A DNA stretch of 64,000 nt, from the NCBI GenBank assembly GCA_017552965.1, contig JAFZNQ010000009.1, positions 220,564 through 284,563 of the forward strand, read 5' to 3'. Under the pieces are notes generated by a model. That model made no database searches and was not told the DNA's origin. It was given only the letters and a program-made list of their open reading frames with translations. The position numbers and the translations under genes were made by a program. This DNA is from Abditibacteriota bacterium. Its GTDB lineage: Bacteria; Armatimonadota; UBA5829. Below, in pieces: positions 1 through 6,740 of this stretch; position 1 is the stretch's first letter, and each line of letters opens with the position of its first letter.

Positions 1-372
1 CGGATATTTGGCGCACAGCTTCCTGCCGAATCTCTTTTGTTTTTCGGCGTCGTCAAGGACCTGGGGCGAGGCGGTGATAAAGGCTATGTCCTGTATGCCC
101 TCCGCTTCCAGCCGGGACACTATGAGAGGCGCTATGATCCTTACGGGAGTCTGAGGGTTGTCGTCGGCGACTATCACGGCCCTTCGCTTGCCCCTGGCCA
201 GCCGGGCAAGACCCGGAGAAGCCACGGGCGCCTCTATAGCCTCCACGGCAGCGTCCCGGATGTCCTCATATTCTATGGGCTCGCGGTTGTTCTTGCTGTA
301 GATGCTGATAAGGTTGCGGTCCGGCACTTCTGCCGGAGCAAAGGTTTCTCCGTATGGAAACTTGACGATCAT
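1..372 (-). CDS. LarA-family protein (lactate racemase-like N-terminal domain, DUF2088); partial, continues beyond the window start
   Basis: Minus-strand ATG at 370-372 preceded by GGAG. The translation MIVKFPYGETFAPAEVPDRNLISIY...RRAVIVADDNPQTPVRIIAPLIVSRLEAEGIQDIAFITA resembles the LarA N-terminus (V-DxTRPTP-like, IALGTH-like). No six-frame track entry because it runs off the window. Confidence 0.5.
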   Translation of the reverse strand, partial: MIVKFPYGETFAPAEVPDRNLISIYSKNNREPIEYEDIRDAAVEAIEAPVASPGLARLARGKRRAVIVADDNPQTPVRIIAPLIVSRLEAEGIQDIAFITASPQVLDDAEKQKRFGRKLCAKYP

Positions 373-406
373 GAGACTACTCCATGCCGGGCAGACGCCC
401 CTGACA

Positions 407-431
407 CAAAAAAACGGCCGAAGCCGTTTTT
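407..431 (-). terminator. Rho-independent terminator downstream of the HMGL-family gene
   Basis: Hairpin acggccgaagccgt flanked by an A7 run and a T run. On the minus strand this reads as stem-loop followed by TTTTTTT directly after the stop at 430-432. Confidence 0.6.
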
Positions 432-2244
432 AATCGTTGATAAGAGGCATCCTTGCCAGCGCCTCAAACTGGATATCTATACCCACCACGCCGATGAAAT
501 CATCGTCATCGTTGTATATGGGAGCAGACACGGTGATACACATCTCTCCCGTGTAGCGGGAGGTATAAAAATCGGTGATATATATCCCCTTGTTCTTCTT
601 GGCCTCCACGAACCACTCCCTTTCGCTGAAGTTCTCGCTGCCGGTGGCGGAGACGTATTTTTCGTTCAGCTGACTGGGGTTGATGTTTTGGGTGATGCGT
701 ATGCCCTTGCTGTCCGTCACGTAGGCAAACTGTATGAAGTCGTGCTTTCTGACTATATTCGACAGCTTGGCCTCTATGCCGGACACGTTCATCTTCTGGG
801 TGCAGGGGTCTTCCACTATCTCTTCTATGATCTTCTCGGTCAGGTCCAGAGCTCTGTTCTTGATGATATCAAAGTCGCTCTTGAAATAGTCGGGCAGATA
901 TATCCGGGCCTGAGCCAGCATCTCCGTATCCGATATGCTGGTCACCCTGCCGGCCTTGTACTGCTCGTGGACCCATTCGTTGATCTTGTAGAGACCCGGA
1001 TGCTTTTTGTCTATGGCGTATTCGCTCTTCAGGCCCAGGAAGGCGTTGACCCAGTGGGCTATGCCGGCCAGTCCGGACTTGTCCGTGACGTTCACTCTGG
1101 CAGGCCTGTTCAGTATCTTGGCAGTATCGAAGATGTTGTATATCTCTTCGTTCTTCAGGATGCCGTCGGCGTGGACGCCGGCGCTGGTCACGTTGAAGTT
1201 GGAGCCCACGAAGGGATAGTTGTCCGGTATGGTGAGGCCCAGCTCCTCGGTGTAGTATTTGGCCACCTCGGTGATCATACGGGTATTGATGCCGCAGTCG
1301 GAGCCCTTCAGGGAGATGTAGTCAAAGATGGCCCCCTCCAGCGAAGGATTGCCGGTCCTCTCTCCGAAGCCGAAGAGAGACGCGTTGACGGCGGCTGCTC
1401 CGTAGAGCCAGGCGGTGGTGCCGTTGACGCCCACCTTGTGAAAATCGTTGTGTCCGTGCCATTCCAGCCACTTGCCGGGGACTCCGCACTCGTTCTTGAG
1501 AGTGTAGATCATCTTGGGCACCGACCTGGGGAGGGCAGCCTCGGCCCAGGGCACGCCGTAGCCCATGGTGTCACACAGGCGGATCTTCACTTCCCTGCCG
1601 GCTTCCTTTGCCACCTTCATCAGCTCGGTGACGTAGGGGATCACAAAGCCCTCAAAGTCGGCTCTGGTGATGTCCTCCAGATGGCACCGCACCGCGTCCA
1701 GACCGAAGTCAAAGGCGTCCCTGACGAGAGAGATATACTGCTCCTTCACCTGCGCCCGGTCCTTTTTCAGCTTCAGATAGATGTGATAGTCCGAGCAGGA
1801 GGTGAGAATGCCCGTTTCCTTCAGGCCCATCTGCTTTACTATCTCAAAATCCTTCTTGGTGGCCCTGATCCAGCCGGTGACCACCGGGAACTTGTGTCCC
1901 AGCTCCAGACACTTGTTGACGGCGTCCTTGTCCTTGTCGGAATACAGGAAAAACTCCGAAAATCTGATGATGCCGTTGGGGCCGCCTATCTGGCTGAGAA
2001 AGTCGTACAGCTTGACTATCTCGCCGGCGGTATAGGGAGGCCTGGCCTGCTGTCCGTCCCGGAAAGTGGTATCTGTGATATAATAATCCTCCACAGGGTC
2101 CATAGGCACGCTCATGCCGTCAAAGACTATGGCCGGGACCTCCGTATAAGGGAATTGCTCCCTCAGCAGGTTGGGCTCCCGGGGGTTGACGAGCTCGCTA
2201 TGGTTTGCAAAGGTCTGAAGTCCGTTCGCTTTTTTGATTATCAT
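430..2244 (-). CDS. HMGL-like family synthase (2-isopropylmalate/homocitrate/citramalate/Re-citrate synthase relatives) with a C-terminal Cache/PAS-like domain
   Basis: ORF 430..2271; I prefer the ATG at 2242-2244 (MIIKKANG...), which has a strong RBS AAGAGGAGGacaag. The N-terminal TIM-barrel shows DRE-aldolase/HMGL motifs ITDTTFRDGQQ ... HGHNDFHKVGVNGTTAWLYGA. The C-terminal ~160 aa (DFIQFAYVTDSKGIRI ... KGIYITDFYTSRYTGEMCITVSAPIYNDDDDFIGVVGIDIQFEAL) look like a Cache/PAS ligand-binding fold. Confidence 0.75.
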   Translation of the reverse strand: MIIKKANGLQTFANHSELVNPREPNLLREQFPYTEVPAIVFDGMSVPMDPVEDYYITDTTFRDGQQARPPYTAGEIVKLYDFLSQIGGPNGIIRFSEFFLYSDKDKDAVNKCLELGHKFPVVTGWIRATKKDFEIVKQMGLKETGILTSCSDYHIYLKLKKDRAQVKEQYISLVRDAFDFGLDAVRCHLEDITRADFEGFVIPYVTELMKVAKEAGREVKIRLCDTMGYGVPWAEAALPRSVPKMIYTLKNECGVPGKWLEWHGHNDFHKVGVNGTTAWLYGAAAVNASLFGFGERTGNPSLEGAIFDYISLKGSDCGINTRMITEVAKYYTEELGLTIPDNYPFVGSNFNVTSAGVHADGILKNEEIYNIFDTAKILNRPARVNVTDKSGLAGIAHWVNAFLGLKSEYAIDKKHPGLYKINEWVHEQYKAGRVTSISDTEMLAQARIYLPDYFKSDFDIIKNRALDLTEKIIEEIVEDPCTQKMNVSGIEAKLSNIVRKHDFIQFAYVTDSKGIRITQNINPSQLNEKYVSATGSENFSEREWFVEAKKNKGIYITDFYTSRYTGEMCITVSAPIYNDDDDFIGVVGIDIQFEALARMPLIND

Positions 2245-2284
2245 CTTGTCCTCCTCTTGCGGGGGCGTCACAGACGCACCCTCT

Positions 2285-2300
2285 CTATTATATCACATAC
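2285..2300 (-). promoter_or_regulatory. Candidate extended -10 promoter (TGtgaTATAAT on the minus strand) for the HMGL-family gene
   Basis: Top-strand attatatcaca at 2287-2297 is the reverse complement of TGTGATATAAT, about 45 nt upstream of the start. A small GC hairpin (gcccctccggggc, 2301-2315) lies between the mutL stop and this element. Confidence 0.35.
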
Positions 2301-2317
2301 AGCCCCTCCGGGGCAAC

Positions 2318-4168
2318 TCAGATCCTCTGAAAGGCCTTGTCCAGATCGTAGTCCGTGATGGACATGAGGATAGGCCTGCCGTGGGGACAGGTGTTGGGTA
2401 TGCGGCACTTCACCAGCTCGTCCACCAGAGTCTGCATCTCTTCCTGCGACAGCTTGTCGCCGGCCTTGATGGCCATGCGGCAGCTGGCGTAAATGAGCAC
2501 CCTCTCCGGCTTGATGACCAGCTTTTTGTCCCCCTGCTCCTCGGACATATCGCTTATGATCTCCTGCAGCACGCTCTTCGCGTTCTTTTCGGTGAGACAG
2601 GCGGGATAGCCGCGCATGATGAAGCTGCCGGCTCCAAAGTCCTCCAGCACGTAGCCGGCTCTGGACAGCTCCTCCATCCGGGCGTTCACTATGGCGGCGT
2701 CCTTCATGGAGCAGCTGATGGTCTCCGGCATGAGCATCAGCTGGGACCCGGTGTTCTCGGCGGAGCGCTCTTCAAAGCTCTCGTAGAGTATGCGCTCGTG
2801 GGCCACGTGCTGATCTATGACTATGATGCCCTTGTCGGAGGAGCATATGATATAGGTGTTCCTGTATTGTCCTATGACCTTCAGCTCGCCGGGGATGGGA
2901 GCCGGCGCCGGCTGCTCGGGCAGGCTGCCCCATGCAAAGGGGTCCCCTTCCTCCTTCCGGTCCGCCAGGTCTATCCTGAAGGTATCGGTCCCGCCGCTCA
3001 TGGTCTTGGGCAGCTCCACCGGGGTCCGGCGGTATTCCCCCGCGGCCCGGCTCCTCTCCTGTCCTCCGGACTGCCCTGCGGACTGTCCCTGCTTCTCCGG
3101 CTCGGCGCCTGTCTGCAGGGCGCCCCGCTCGGCGGGTCTCAGGGAGCCGAGACTGCCGGAGACAGCCTTGGTCACTCCCTTGTGTATCAGCCCGGATATC
3201 TGGCTTTCGTTGCTGAAGTTCACCTCGCTCTTGGCGGGATGCACGTTCACGTCCACCAGCCCCGGCGGCAGCGTCACGAATATGACGGCGGCCGGATATT
3301 TGCCGGGAGCAAGAGTCTTGTAGGGCAGCTCTGCCATATACAGCATCTTTCTGTTTTTGACGCAGCGGCCGTTGACGTACATATATTCGTCTCTTCTGGA
3401 GCCCCGGCAGCCCTGGGCGGTGGACACGTAGCCGGACACGGTGGAGACTCCGTCCGTCTCGGAAAAATACACCATATCCCTGGCAGTATCCGCCCCCAGC
3501 ACGGAGGTGATGGCGTTCAGCAGATTGCCTCCCGGAGCCGACAGCAGCAGCCTTCGCGGGGTGTATTCGCCCCTGTCCCTGCGTATGAGGTTCACCAGCT
3601 CAAAACGCCTGCCGGGCTCTCCTATGGCCAGCTGGCTGATGACGCCCAGTATGCCATTCTGCTCCGAAGACGCGGTCTTCATGAACTTGCGTCTGGCGGG
3701 CACGTTGTAAAACAGGTCCCTCACGGTGATGCGGGTCCCCCGGGAAAAAGCGATACGCTCCACGCTCTCCGGCTCCCCGCCGCTGACGGTGATGCGCACC
3801 CCGTTGCCCTCCGGATTGTCGCAGGTCTCTATGACCATCCTGCTGACGGAGGCTATGCTGGGCACCGCTTCCCCCCTGAAGCCCAGAGTGGTGATGTTTG
3901 ACAGGTCGTCGGCAGAGCGTATCTTGCTGGTGGCGTGTCTGGAGAGGCACATCACCGCGTCGGTCTCGGACATGCCGCAGCCGTTGTCCGTGACCCTGAT
4001 ATAGGTCTGGCCGCCGTTTTCGATCTCTATCTTGATGGCGTCGGCTCCGGCGTCGATGGAATTCTCACAGAGCTCCTTGACCACGGAGAGAGGCCGCTCC
4101 ACCACCTCGCCGGCAGCTATCTGGCTGGCGGTGATGTCGTCCAGTATGTTGATCTTAGCGTCGCTCAT
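2318..4168 (-). CDS. mutL: DNA mismatch repair protein MutL
   Basis: N-terminal GHKL ATPase motifs (ELCENSIDAGA, TDNGCGM). The C-terminal endonuclease motif DQHVAHERILYE is typical of MutH-less bacteria. RBS GAAGAGG before the ATG at 4166-4168. Confidence 0.95.
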   Translation of the reverse strand: MSDAKINILDDITASQIAAGEVVERPLSVVKELCENSIDAGADAIKIEIENGGQTYIRVTDNGCGMSETDAVMCLSRHATSKIRSADDLSNITTLGFRGEAVPSIASVSRMVIETCDNPEGNGVRITVSGGEPESVERIAFSRGTRITVRDLFYNVPARRKFMKTASSEQNGILGVISQLAIGEPGRRFELVNLIRRDRGEYTPRRLLLSAPGGNLLNAITSVLGADTARDMVYFSETDGVSTVSGYVSTAQGCRGSRRDEYMYVNGRCVKNRKMLYMAELPYKTLAPGKYPAAVIFVTLPPGLVDVNVHPAKSEVNFSNESQISGLIHKGVTKAVSGSLGSLRPAERGALQTGAEPEKQGQSAGQSGGQERSRAAGEYRRTPVELPKTMSGGTDTFRIDLADRKEEGDPFAWGSLPEQPAPAPIPGELKVIGQYRNTYIICSSDKGIIVIDQHVAHERILYESFEERSAENTGSQLMLMPETISCSMKDAAIVNARMEELSRAGYVLEDFGAGSFIMRGYPACLTEKNAKSVLQEIISDMSEEQGDKKLVIKPERVLIYASCRMAIKAGDKLSQEEMQTLVDELVKCRIPNTCPHGRPILMSITDYDLDKAFQRI

Positions 4169-6740
4169 TGTCCAGCCTCTTCTTCCAGGTGTATATCAGA
4201 TTGAGAGCCTCTATGGGAGACAGGGAGTCCGGATTGACGGCCCTGATCTCCTCGGTGACGGGATCCGGAGCGATGTCAAACAGCTTCAGCTGTATGTTCT
4301 CCGCAGCCGGGCCGATGGCCTTTTTGTCCGAGTCCTCGGCTTCCAGCCGGGCCAGTATGTCTCTGGCTCTCCCTATGACCGATGCGGGCAGGCCCGCCAG
4401 CCGGGCCACCTCCAGACCGTAGGATCTGTCAGTGCCGCCCTTCATGATCTTTCTGAGCCATATCACCCGGTCCTTTTCTTCCCGGACGGCCACTCTGTAA
4501 TTGACCACTCCCTCCATATGCTGCTCCAGCTGGTTGAGCATATGGTAGTGGGTGGCAAAGAGGGCCTTGCAGCCGATCCTTTCCAGCTCCTCCAGCGACG
4601 CCCAGGCAATGGCCAGACCGTCGTGGGTGGAGGTGCCCCTGCCTATCTCGTCCAGTATCACCAGACTGTCGGAGGTGGCGTTGTTGATGATGTTCGCCGT
4701 CTCGTTCATCTCCACCATAAAGGTGCTCTGGCCCGTGGCCAGCTCGTCATGGGCCCCTATGCGGGTAAATATGCGGTCCACCACCCCTATATGGGCTTCC
4801 TCCGCCGGCACGTAGCAGCCTATCTGGGCCAGCAGCACTATAAGGGCCGTCTGGCGCATGTAGGTGGACTTGCCGGCCATATTGGGACCGGTGATCACCC
4901 ATATCCTGCTGTCGGAGCCGTTGAGATGGGTGTCATTGGCCACAAAGGCTTCGGTACAGGTCTCTATGACAGGATGTCTGCCGCCCCTGATATCGATGCA
5001 GCCGCTGTCATTGACCTCCGGCTTCACATAATCGCTTTCGCCGGCCAGATAGGCAAAGGAGGACAGCACGTCCAGCCTGGCTATGCCGGAGGCGGCGGCC
5101 CCGATGCGGCGGGTCTCGTCACCCAGCTTGTCCAGCAGCCGGTCCCAGAGCTCCTTTTCCAGCTCCAGGGCCTTTTCGTCGGCTCCCAGCAGCTTTTCCT
5201 CTATGGCCTTCAGCTCCTCTGTGATGTATCTTTCGCAGTTCACCAGAGTCTGCTTGCGTATATACCGTTCGGGCACTGAGTCCTGCTCCTTGCGGCTGAC
5301 CTCGATGTAATAGCCGAAGACGCTGTTATAGCCCACCTTGAGGGTCTTGCAGCCGGTCTGCTCCCTCTCCTCGGCTTCCAGCTGCAGTATCCAGCTCTGC
5401 CCCTGGCTTTTGGCGTTGCGCAGGGAATCCAGCTCCGGGTCGTAGCCGTCCCGGATGACGCCGCCGTCCCGTATGGAGGCGGAATGGTTTTCCATGACTG
5501 CGCTTTCGATGAGACCGGCGGTATCCTCAAAGCCCTCAAAGCCGGCGGCCAGCTCCCCGGGTCTGTCCTTCAGCAGCTCCGACAGGCGGGGCAGCTCCCG
5601 CAGGCTGGCGGCAAGTCCCAGCAGGTCCTTGGGGGAAGCCATCTTGGACACTATGCGGGACTGTATCCTCTCTATATCCATGATCTGCCCCAGGGACCTG
5701 CGGGTATCCTCCAGCAGCAGGCGGTCGGAGGCAAACACCTCCACCTTGTCCAGGCGGTCGTTGATATCCCGGCAGGACACCAGAGGCGCCTCTATCCAGC
5801 TGCGCAGCAGCCGGGCTCCCATGGCAGTCCTGGTCCTGTTCACCGTGGCCATGAGGGTCAGGCTTTTGTCCCCGGGCCCTGAGGGCTGGGTCAGCTCCAG
5901 ATTCTGGCGTGTGGAAGCGTCCATCAGCATAAAGCCCCGGGGGTCATAGTTGGATATGGAGATGATGTTTTTCAGGATGTCGGGGCTGTTCTTGCGTATG
6001 TAGCTGAGTATCAGAGCCCCGGCCCACAGCCCTGCGTCATAGTCGTCCAGACCAAAGCCTCTCAGGGAGTCCGTGCGAAAATAGGACGACAGAGCCTCCC
6101 GGGGGGTCTCACCGGGCATAAGCCCTGCGTCTGTGAGCTCGTAGCGGGAGTTGGTGCAGCAAAGGAGCAGATTCTCAAAGTCTCTCCCGGACCGGTCGCT
6201 CACCAGTATCTCGGTGGGCGACAGCCGGGCCAGCTCGTCGGCGATGGTCTGCCTGGCCTCGCTCATGGGGAACTCGCACACGGCAAACTCTCCGGTGCTC
6301 ACGTCCGCAAAGGCCATGCCCACCGACCTGTCCTCGCCGGCCAGGGCCACTATGAAGTTGTTGGCGTCTCCCTGCAGCATGCCTTCTTCGATGACGGTAC
6401 CGGGAGTCACCACTCTGGTCACCCCTCTTTTGACCAGCTTTTTGGCCTTTTTGGGGTCCTCCAGCTGGTCGCAGACCGCCACCTTGTAGCCCTTGGCCAC
6501 CAGCCGGGCGATGTATTTGTCTCTGGCGTGGAAGGGAAAGCCGCACATGGGCATGTCGGCGGCATAACCAGCCGAGCGCTTCGTGAGAGTGATCTCCAGC
6601 TCTTTGGAGGCGATCTTCGCATCCTCGCCGAACATCTCGTAAAAATCGCCCATTCTGTAAAACAGTATGATGTCCGGATACAGAGCCTTGACCCGGAGAT
6701 ACTGCTCTTCCATAGGGGTAGTCTTTTTGTCTGCTTTCAT
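4155..6740 (-). CDS. mutS: DNA mismatch repair protein MutS
   Basis: N-terminal mismatch-binding motif TPMEEQYLRVK...GDFYEMFGEDA; Walker A GPNMAGKSTYMRQ; 861 aa. Overlaps the mutL start by 14 nt, suggesting co-transcription. Confidence 0.95.
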   Translation of the reverse strand: MKADKKTTPMEEQYLRVKALYPDIILFYRMGDFYEMFGEDAKIASKELEITLTKRSAGYAADMPMCGFPFHARDKYIARLVAKGYKVAVCDQLEDPKKAKKLVKRGVTRVVTPGTVIEEGMLQGDANNFIVALAGEDRSVGMAFADVSTGEFAVCEFPMSEARQTIADELARLSPTEILVSDRSGRDFENLLLCCTNSRYELTDAGLMPGETPREALSSYFRTDSLRGFGLDDYDAGLWAGALILSYIRKNSPDILKNIISISNYDPRGFMLMDASTRQNLELTQPSGPGDKSLTLMATVNRTRTAMGARLLRSWIEAPLVSCRDINDRLDKVEVFASDRLLLEDTRRSLGQIMDIERIQSRIVSKMASPKDLLGLAASLRELPRLSELLKDRPGELAAGFEGFEDTAGLIESAVMENHSASIRDGGVIRDGYDPELDSLRNAKSQGQSWILQLEAEEREQTGCKTLKVGYNSVFGYYIEVSRKEQDSVPERYIRKQTLVNCERYITEELKAIEEKLLGADEKALELEKELWDRLLDKLGDETRRIGAAASGIARLDVLSSFAYLAGESDYVKPEVNDSGCIDIRGGRHPVIETCTEAFVANDTHLNGSDSRIWVITGPNMAGKSTYMRQTALIVLLAQIGCYVPAEEAHIGVVDRIFTRIGAHDELATGQSTFMVEMNETANIINNATSDSLVILDEIGRGTSTHDGLAIAWASLEELERIGCKALFATHYHMLNQLEQHMEGVVNYRVAVREEKDRVIWLRKIMKGGTDRSYGLEVARLAGLPASVIGRARDILARLEAEDSDKKAIGPAAENIQLKLFDIAPDPVTEEIRAVNPDSLSPIEALNLIYTWKKRLDNERR

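Follow-up and report, generated by a model that had tools for sequence, protein, structure and literature searches.

A probable Re-citrate synthase with a C-terminal Cache domain, a candidate metabolite sensor, in an Abditibacteriota bacterium

Introduction

The gene described here lies at the start of a 64,000-nucleotide stretch of DNA (the window) from a metagenome-assembled genome (MAG) of an Abditibacteriota bacterium (GenBank assembly GCA_017552965.1, contig JAFZNQ010000009.1, positions 220,564 to 284,563 of the forward strand). It is predicted to encode a protein of 604 amino acids in which an HMGL-type catalytic barrel is followed by a Cache domain, a module better known from membrane receptors. 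Sequence comparisons indicate that the product is most likely the long form of a Re-citrate synthase of the CKL_0973/SYN_02536 type (EC 2.3.3.3), which makes citrate from acetyl-CoA and oxaloacetate. Enzymes of this class are characterised by Re-face stereospecific synthesis of citrate and by their dependence on Mn2+ or Co2+. We infer that the Cache domain of the 604-aa protein may sense an amino acid or a carboxylate in the cytoplasm and regulate the enzyme allosterically.

Results

Organisation of the gene and its catalytic part

The elements recognised in and around the gene are collected in Table 1.

Table 1. Features of the Re-citrate-synthase-like gene and its product (window coordinates; res, residues of the 604-aa protein)
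Feature	Position	Strand	Remarks
Promoter-like site TTGCCC-18 nt-TATAAT, TG upstream (extended -10)	2287..2316	-	Consensus scan; 43 nt 5' of ATG
Shine-Dalgarno-like GAGGAGG	2250..2256	-	Read from sequence; 5 nt 5' of ATG 2244
Coding sequence, long-form Re-citrate-synthase-like protein	430..2244	-	604 aa + stop; open reading frame (ORF) list, sequence
N-terminal extension, res 17-45 (ELVNPREPNLLREQFPYTEVPAIVFDGMS)	2110..2196	-	Signature common to Re-citrate synthases
HMGL-like / DRE-TIM catalytic barrel, res 55-328	1261..2082	-	Pfam PF00682, E 1e-28
Post-barrel subdomains and helical linker, res 329-455	880..1260	-	Weak HCS_D2 match, res 348-397
Single cytoplasmic Cache module, res 456-598	451..879	-	Long N-terminal helix, then PAS-like alpha/beta core
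R542-E-W544-F545 (REWF), equivalent to PctA R126-x-W128-Y129	610..621	-	R and W are AA_motif carboxylate contacts
Y560-T-S562-R-Y-T565 (YTSRYT)	550..567	-	Y560 equivalent to PctA Y144 (amino-group contact)
D590, equivalent to PctA D173 and Tlp3 D196 (amino-group contact)	475..477	-	60/60 long forms
Terminator-like hairpin AAAAACGGC-UUCG-GCCGUUUUU + U-rich tail	408..431	-	Starts inside stop codon

The first-pass annotation of this DNA, made from the letters alone, had read the gene as an HMGL-family enzyme of the DRE-TIM Claisen-condensing type, and the PF00682 match over residues 55-328 bears this out. The peptides it quoted were all found in the protein: ELVNPREPNLLREQFPYTEVP at residues 17-37, ITDTTFRDGQQ, HGHNDFHKVGVNGTTAWLYGA, and KGIYITDFYTS...IDIQFEAL at residues 552-596. 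The barrel aligns to the isopropylmalate synthase (IPMS)/methylthioalkylmalate (MAM) synthase structures 6e1j and 3eeg through the RDGxQ, HxHND and GxHxDG motifs, and the catalytic and metal-binding residues R62, D63, E190, H263, H265, N266 and H358 are invariant among 25 homologs. In a sequence search of the PDB, residues 55-390 matched IPMS, MAM synthase, homocitrate synthase and citramalate synthase. The top Foldseek matches of a full-length AlphaFold2 (AF2) model were 6e1j, 6ktq, 3rmj and 3bli, its barrel matching MAM synthase, Sulfolobus homocitrate synthase, IPMS, citramalate synthase and M. tuberculosis LeuA.

Ahead of the barrel, the N-terminal extension was aligned by BLASTP to 'EPNLQKEVFPYDEVSRIDFD' of SYN_02536 from S. 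aciditrophicus; its counterpart in CKL_0973 from C. kluyveri reads 'DPNFYKDIFPYEEVPKIVF' (PMC12016533 Table S1). The family-specific motif EPNL..x..FPY.EVP..F, at residues 23-41, aligns to SYN_02536, occurs in CKL_0973 and is conserved in homologs; residues L27, R28, P32, Y33, V36, P37, F41 and D42 are invariant in the set of 25.

Relationship to characterised Re-citrate synthases

To place the protein, we compared it by BLASTP with the known Re-citrate synthase sequences given in Table S1 of PMC12016533, the printed text of which carries some optical character recognition noise. Identity to SYN_02536 was 50% over residues 17-600, the entire Cache domain included. The enzymes of C. thermocellum (Clo1313, 55%), C. 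kluyveri (CKL_0973, 51%) and C. acetobutylicum (CAC0970, 49%) aligned over the catalytic part only, alignments to short-form enzymes stopping at residues 442-457. Identity fell to 26-30% in the catalytic part for HM1_2993 of H. modesticaldum, the D. mccartyi Re-citrate synthase clade and NifV, and among NCBIfam models, those for NifV, LeuA, CimA and homocitrate synthase also covered the catalytic part only and remained 3-7 fold short of their cutoffs. Two of the relatives, SYN_02536 and the C. kluyveri enzyme, are described as 'known and isolated' Re-citrate synthases. They share 49% identity (Fig. S1 table, PMC12016533), a value matched by the identity of the 604-aa protein to either one. No Re-citrate synthase structure was found in the PDB copy searched, either by sequence or with Foldseek.

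SYN_02536 resembles the 604-aa protein throughout, with the N-terminal signature, the HMGL barrel, the post-barrel subdomains, a C-terminal Cache/PDC module (MCP-like_PDC_1, 37.8 bits, cutoff 27) and the pocket residues R-x-W-F, Y-x-S..T and D described below. It differs in its host (Syntrophia rather than an Abditibacteriota MAG) and in a weaker dCache_1 score (25 vs. 68 bits). CKL_0973 and its putative clostridial orthologs share 49-55% identity over the N-terminal signature, barrel and linker, and presumably catalyse the same reaction, but end at the equivalent of about residue 455; CKL_0973 has no Cache match. Syntrophales-type long forms (SYN_02536 and the proteins at loci L027, L032, L036, L039, L043 and L046) extend beyond the Cache domain by a further conserved stretch of about 25 residues, e.g. 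...AEATQIALREEYEAKSKSDRW, which is absent from the 604-aa protein.

Re-citrate synthase was among the functions put forward at first pass, and is now the best supported of them. The novelty implied for the architecture has to be withdrawn, since the characterised SYN_02536 has the same tail, with identity running through residue 600 and MCP-like_PDC_1 above its cutoff, and since the long form is widespread (see below).

In NCBI the 604-aa protein and many of its homologs go under 'histone-lysine N-methyltransferase', and some under 'triose-phosphate isomerase' (P0001, P0033, P0075, P0085, P0107, P0119, P0272, P0280 and P0285). Pfam and NCBIfam scans gave no SET, other methyltransferase or TIM-isomerase family; both names seem to have been passed on by mistake from record to record within the Re-citrate synthase family.

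The C-terminal tail is a single Cache module without a membrane anchor

The tail had been proposed to be a Cache/PAS-type module located inside the cell and distinct from the LeuA/CimA regulatory domain, and the profile searches and models agree on all three counts. Residues 466-596 match Pfam dCache_1 with 68.2 bits (gathering cutoff 45), and MCP-like_PDC_1 reaches 52.4 bits (cutoff 27); as sequence-profile matches, both scores are far beyond chance. The dCache_1 match spans positions 26-155 of the 240 in the profile, corresponding to the membrane-distal module only, and the protein ends 8 residues later. YkuI_C scored 24.3 against a cutoff of 26, sCache_3_2 was below cutoff (E 0.004) and a DcuS/MalK model gave an E-value of 0.047. 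There was no Pfam match to LeuA_dimer (PF08502), even at E<=1, and the NCBIfam models for LeuA and CimA align no further than about residues 390-432, ruling out the LeuA/CimA regulatory domain as the tail.

Searches against known structures gave the same picture. In a PDB sequence search, residues ~537-599 matched Tlp3, Mlp24/37, KinD and PctA, and a profile built from 27 Cache domains of the family matched Tlp3 (2.6e-11), KinD (1.8e-10), PctA (1.9e-8) and YkuI (1.3e-4). An AF2 model of residues 441-604 (per-residue confidence, pLDDT, 87.8; predicted TM-score, pTM, 0.81) has helices at 17-37 and 47-60 (model numbering) followed by strands and helices in the Cache topology. Its Foldseek matches were KinD, Tlp3, Mlp24, PctA/C and YkuI, with E-values from 3e-8 to 1e-5 and a probability of 1.00.

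The 604-aa protein has no transmembrane (TM)-like segment (maximum Kyte-Doolittle average over 19 residues, 1.31). This places the Cache domain in the cytoplasm and rules out a membrane or periplasmic location. The canonical dCache_1 sensor, with two tandem modules between TM helices, thus differs from what is seen here. In a 2016 census, Cache domains were attached to signalling outputs and 78% of them were predicted to be extracellular, only YkuI_C and Diacid_rec being mainly intracellular (PMC4822843). Against this background, it is unusual for a member of the superfamily to occur as a single dCache_1-like module on a soluble enzyme of metabolism.

Conservation of a putative amino-acid-type pocket

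In the dCache_1AA receptors, residues Y121, R126 and W128 of the AA_motif contact the ligand's carboxyl group, and Y144 and D173 its amino group; in PctA, binding is 61-fold weaker in the R126A mutant and is lost with D173A or D173N (PMC8915833). According to a follow-up study, Y129 is structural rather than a ligand contact, and R126 is lost in amine-only sensors. We transferred these positions from the Tlp3 and PctA alignments and calculated their conservation over 60 long forms. The Cache domain is the least conserved region of these proteins (43% mean pairwise identity vs. 67% for the barrel), with a median column conservation of 0.57. Within it, G514, W544, F545, S562 and D590 are 100% conserved, T571 98%, R542 and T565 97% (58/60 each) and Y560 85% (51/60). 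D590 is also conserved in the 40- and 26/27-sequence alignments, and KinD, which binds pyruvate, has no Asp at the D173-equivalent position in the alignment. S562 occupies the position of PctA D146 and Tlp3 D169. The 604-aa protein has four of the five AA_motif positions, the equivalent of Y121 being E537.

The protein also departs from the long-form consensus at D502 (P in 87%), A548 (P, 88%), K552 (G, 93%) and M568 (L, 98%), encoded at nt ~541-741 of the minus strand; these departures may be specific to the Abditibacteriota/Armatimonadota clade.

Distribution of long and short forms

Relatives were collected from protein clusters at 90% identity (best 120 inspected), from a library of 50%-identity representatives and from a scan of one genome per species with full-length alignment. 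The combination of HMGL, dCache_1 and MCP-like_PDC_1 was present in at least 118 of the best 120 clusters, answering the first-pass question of whether homologs of similar length share this C-terminus. The representative library held 238 clusters at E<1e-30, with full-length Cache forms that include one from Lentisphaeria (P0121), and the genome scan returned 475 relatives. Among the best 80 of these 475 loci, 59 extracted ORFs were Cache-bearing long forms of 582-857 aa and 18 were short forms of 445-501 aa. The long forms are spread over roughly ten phyla in this sample, their hosts being Armatimonadota, Omnitrophota, Desulfobacterales, Syntrophales, Syntrophorhabdales, Thermodesulfobacteriota, Nitrospirae, Elusimicrobia, Lentisphaerae, Spirochaetales, Ca. 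Termititenax and Desulfovibrionaceae. Short forms came from Lachnospiraceae and other Bacillota, anammox Planctomycetota, Auribacterota, Binatus and one Armatimonadetes; they end in '...LPEYF', at the equivalent of about residue 455, and the helix of the long-form Cache domain runs on directly from there.

Within this enzyme family a Cache tail is the normal condition, and the design is not new. Database pipelines already name homologs 'cache domain-containing protein' or 'PDC sensor domain-containing protein', and in the literature searched, outside which two primary enzymology papers lie, no paper linked a Cache domain to Re-citrate synthase, isopropylmalate synthase or the HMGL-like family, and none came up under the locus tag SYN_02536.

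A neighbour-joining (NJ) tree of the catalytic region, crude and with very short, unsupported internal branches, groups the 604-aa protein with the long forms of Armatimonadota and interleaves long and short forms. Either the Cache domain was gained or lost more than once, or the tree does not resolve the question, and we draw no conclusion beyond this from the sequences.

Two homologs stand out by host or size. A full-length Cache-bearing protein with 44% identity (P0126, 593 aa, MFH1642488.1) is found in a 'Nanoarchaeota archaeon' MAG, reflecting either horizontal transfer or a binning artefact, and the ORF from a Desulfovibrio desulfuricans MAG (L057) measures 857 aa, about 250 aa more than its relatives; the extra length may be an upstream-start artefact of ORF extension or an additional N-terminal domain.

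Start codon, expression signals and neighbouring genes

The coding sequence runs on the minus strand from an ATG at 2244-2242 to a TAA at 432-430 (604 codons). Some pipelines choose instead an in-frame GTG at 2271, which gives a protein of 613 aa. The GTG-start form is the database record, and an exact-protein lookup with the 604-aa form found no record; the 604-aa protein is a 100% match to P0001/MBR4748324.1 (NCBI nr, Abditibacteriota MAG). Three observations make ATG 2244 the more plausible start: it is preceded at 5 nt by GAGGAGG, the corresponding Met is the first residue of close homologs (P0002, for example), and the sole promoter-like -10 element ends at 2287.

At first pass the gene had been given its own promoter, ribosome-binding site and terminator. 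A ribosome-binding site is suggested by the Shine-Dalgarno-like GAGGAGG. The promoter-like site is present, but is not significant alone (1 found vs. a mean of 1.3 expected in shuffled sequence). The hairpin and U-tract after the stop codon fold with -11.3 kcal/mol (z -2.14 vs. shuffles) and were not called on the minus strand by a pattern scanner. It is plausible, though unproven, that the gene is monocistronic.

The gene is flanked by mutS-mutL on one side and by a LarA-family gene on the other, with a common orientation throughout. Directly upstream are mutS (4155..6740, -) and mutL (2318..4168, -), which have 14 nt in common; 73 nt separate the end of mutL from the start codon of the Re-citrate-synthase-like gene. 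The downstream neighbour (1-372, -) is indeed a LarA-family gene, as first annotated, with Lar_N and LarA_C domains in 424 aa (also at 11900-13174 of L003), and is followed by SpoIID. The LarA neighbour recurs solely in near-identical contigs (L003 and L004) and not at the loci of other homologs, and its adjacency therefore gives no functional link. Neighbourhoods differ in every homolog examined, with no conserved operon partners such as aconitase, isocitrate dehydrogenase or lar genes, and the gene is solitary, outside any leu, nif or lys cluster. An ORF of 773 aa (37..2358, +) runs antisense to the whole gene, and similar long antisense ORFs cover mutL and mutS; these are composition artefacts, not genes.

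Domains fused in relatives

Relatives in the representative library carry other add-ons to the same type of enzyme: C-terminal ACT domains in P0155 and P0188 (~38-39% identity) and an N-terminal response-regulator receiver in P0122 (58%). The title of 6ktq mentions a RAM domain in Sulfolobus homocitrate synthase. Together, these fusions provide a family precedent for regulatory add-ons. Another relative (P0146, 39% identity) has a C-terminal ATP-grasp/L-amino-acid-ligase extension. In Armatimonadota, an XRE-type helix-turn-helix precedes the Re-citrate synthase and Cache parts in P0029, P0051 and P0091 (692-693 aa; L006, 6001-8082), three independent clusters from NCBI, ENA and JGI, which suggests a possible enzyme/transcription-factor hybrid.

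Discussion

The explanation that we favour, and hold to be reasonably probable, joins two statements: that the gene encodes a long-form Re-citrate synthase, and that its Cache domain binds a carboxylate-bearing metabolite, probably an amino acid, with binding coupled to catalysis. Recruitment of the Cache module as an intracellular allosteric sensor, as suggested at first pass, is a reasonable inference, for which the conservation of the pocket residues speaks here. In such a mechanism, the module would bind a small cytoplasmic metabolite, its carboxylate held by R542 and W544 and an amino group probably by Y560 and D590, a combination that would point to an amino acid as ligand. The signal could then travel through the long helix (residues ~457-478), which would be continuous with the last helix of the short forms, into the post-barrel subdomains, which contribute to the active site in the LeuA and homocitrate synthase relatives. 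That the Cache helix runs on directly from the short-form end supports this coupling. Re-citrate synthase feeds the 2-oxoglutarate/glutamate branch (PMC12016533), and the enzyme would here supply citrate to this oxidative branch, on the way to 2-oxoglutarate and glutamate. As the end product of that pathway, glutamate is the most natural candidate for a feedback effector, and is possibly the inhibitor bound by the Cache domain. The narrower reading, that a true amino-acid sensor, for glutamate or aspartate for instance, gates the enzyme allosterically, we put forward as tentative and, taken by itself, rather doubtful.

The Cache domain would correspond in function to the LeuA_dimer, RAM and ACT domains that sister enzymes carry at or near this position. 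Feedback by the amino acid of the pathway is well established among these, with LeuA responding to Leu and CimA to Ile, both through a LeuA_dimer domain, and lysine-bound homocitrate synthase structures were among the Foldseek matches. LeuA, CimA and the Sulfolobus homocitrate synthase belong with the 604-aa protein in the DRE-TIM Claisen-condensing superfamily and likewise carry a ligand-binding domain C-terminal to the post-barrel subdomains, but their regulatory fold is unrelated to Cache and their catalytic domains are only ~20-26% identical. The tail itself finds its best sequence and structure matches in the dCache_1AA sensors PctA, Tlp3 and Mlp37/Mlp24 and in KinD, with the positions of R126, W128, Y129 (F in the 604-aa protein), Y144 and D173 of the dCache_1AA sensors aligned and conserved. 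Those proteins, however, are chemoreceptors or kinases with an extracytoplasmic double Cache between two TM helices, whereas the 604-aa protein has a single cytoplasmic module fused to an enzyme and lacks the first motif Tyr (Y121). YkuI of B. subtilis (EAL + YkuI_C) is likewise soluble and cytoplasmic and has a barrel-type domain followed, on the C-terminal side, by one of the Cache superfamily, and the tail matches its structure (2bas, E 3e-6) as well as its sequence profile. It differs in that the tail scores below the YkuI_C cutoff and well above that of dCache_1, and in being a c-di-GMP signalling protein rather than a central metabolic enzyme.

Several observations weigh against the explanation that we favour. 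The Cache domain is dispensable for catalysis, since short forms function without it and interleave with long forms in the crude NJ tree. The same unsupported tree places the clade of the 604-aa protein as sister to, and outside, the clade bracketed by the two characterised enzymes. The study of the S. aciditrophicus enzyme is said to report activity and no effector. The motif appears to be incomplete, at four of five positions, the residue equivalent to Y121 being a Tyr in only 8/60 long forms, of the Desulfovibrionaceae type. The W, G and D residues are generally conserved in dCache_1 domains, so that part of the conservation could be structural, and the full-length AF2 model is only of moderate quality (pLDDT 72.6, with low values at residues 344-384). 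Finally, the AA_motif has been validated only on extracellular dCache_1 domains (PMC8915833).

The alternative that we take most seriously, unlikely as it appears to us, keeps the same architecture and coupling but has the Cache domain bind a non-amino-acid carboxylate (pyruvate, 2-oxoglutarate, citrate, malate or oxaloacetate) and so report on carbon status. The pyruvate-binding KinD ranks first among the structural matches and second among those of the sequence profile, with a Y-x-S-R-x-T-G stretch in common; the missing first Tyr of the AA_motif and the weak matches to CitA/DcuS-type domains (the sCache_3_2 and DcuS/MalK hits above) point the same way. Set against this is D590, present in 60/60 long forms: in amine sensors and dCache_1AA sensors its equivalent contacts the ligand's amino group, KinD has no such residue, and an acidic residue in the pocket would be unfavourable for di- or tricarboxylates. 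Cache domains commonly dimerise through their N-terminal helices and SYN_02536 is reportedly a homotetramer, so that the module could be a structural or oligomerisation device without a physiological ligand, assembling dimers or tetramers through its long helix. That the short-form C. kluyveri enzyme is active without a Cache domain (PMC12016533) and that interleaving of the two forms suggests easy gain or loss would fit such a role. Conservation sits, however, at pocket positions (R542, W544, S562, T565, T571 and D590) and not in the long helix, and the domain has been kept across about ten phyla, at 43% mean identity, with the pocket residues fixed; we consider a purely structural role improbable.

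Slightly less probable again is a different reaction altogether, in which the catalytic domain would use another 2-oxoacid, as homocitrate, citramalate or isopropylmalate synthases do, and the Cache domain would sense the end product of that pathway. The sole family-model matches are indeed those to NifV, LeuA and CimA, ~50% identity to characterised Re-citrate synthases is a level that permits a change of specificity, and the PDB copy searched held no Re-citrate synthase structure against which the substrate-pocket residues could be checked. Those models nevertheless score 3-7 fold below their cutoffs, and both characterised relatives, themselves only 49% identical, are Re-citrate synthases that are no closer to one another than the 604-aa protein is to either. 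It also has the family-specific N-terminal signature in common with them, and the gene stands outside any leu, nif or lys cluster.

A long-form Re-citrate synthase with a metabolite-binding Cache domain would have consequences beyond this locus. The enzyme is the entry to the oxidative branch of the TCA cycle, and hence to glutamate-family biosynthesis, in many strict anaerobes, among them clostridia, syntrophs, sulfate reducers, anammox bacteria and Armatimonadota/Abditibacteriota. We know of no description of its allosteric regulation, and none was found in the literature searched. Most of the non-clostridial members examined have a Cache domain with a preserved pocket of probable amino-acid type, which provides a concrete and inexpensive hypothesis for SYN_02536, an enzyme that has already been expressed. 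At the level of annotation, family members that are widely misnamed, also as 'cache domain-containing protein', should read Re-citrate synthase-like. If the amino-acid reading is true, motif-based prediction of Cache ligands would be carried over from receptors to enzymes, and the 'universal amino-acid sensor' pocket known from extracellular dCache_1 receptors would serve in the cell's interior for the feedback control of a central metabolic enzyme. It would then represent a fourth independent solution to end-product control in the DRE-TIM Claisen-condensing superfamily, beside LeuA_dimer, RAM and ACT.

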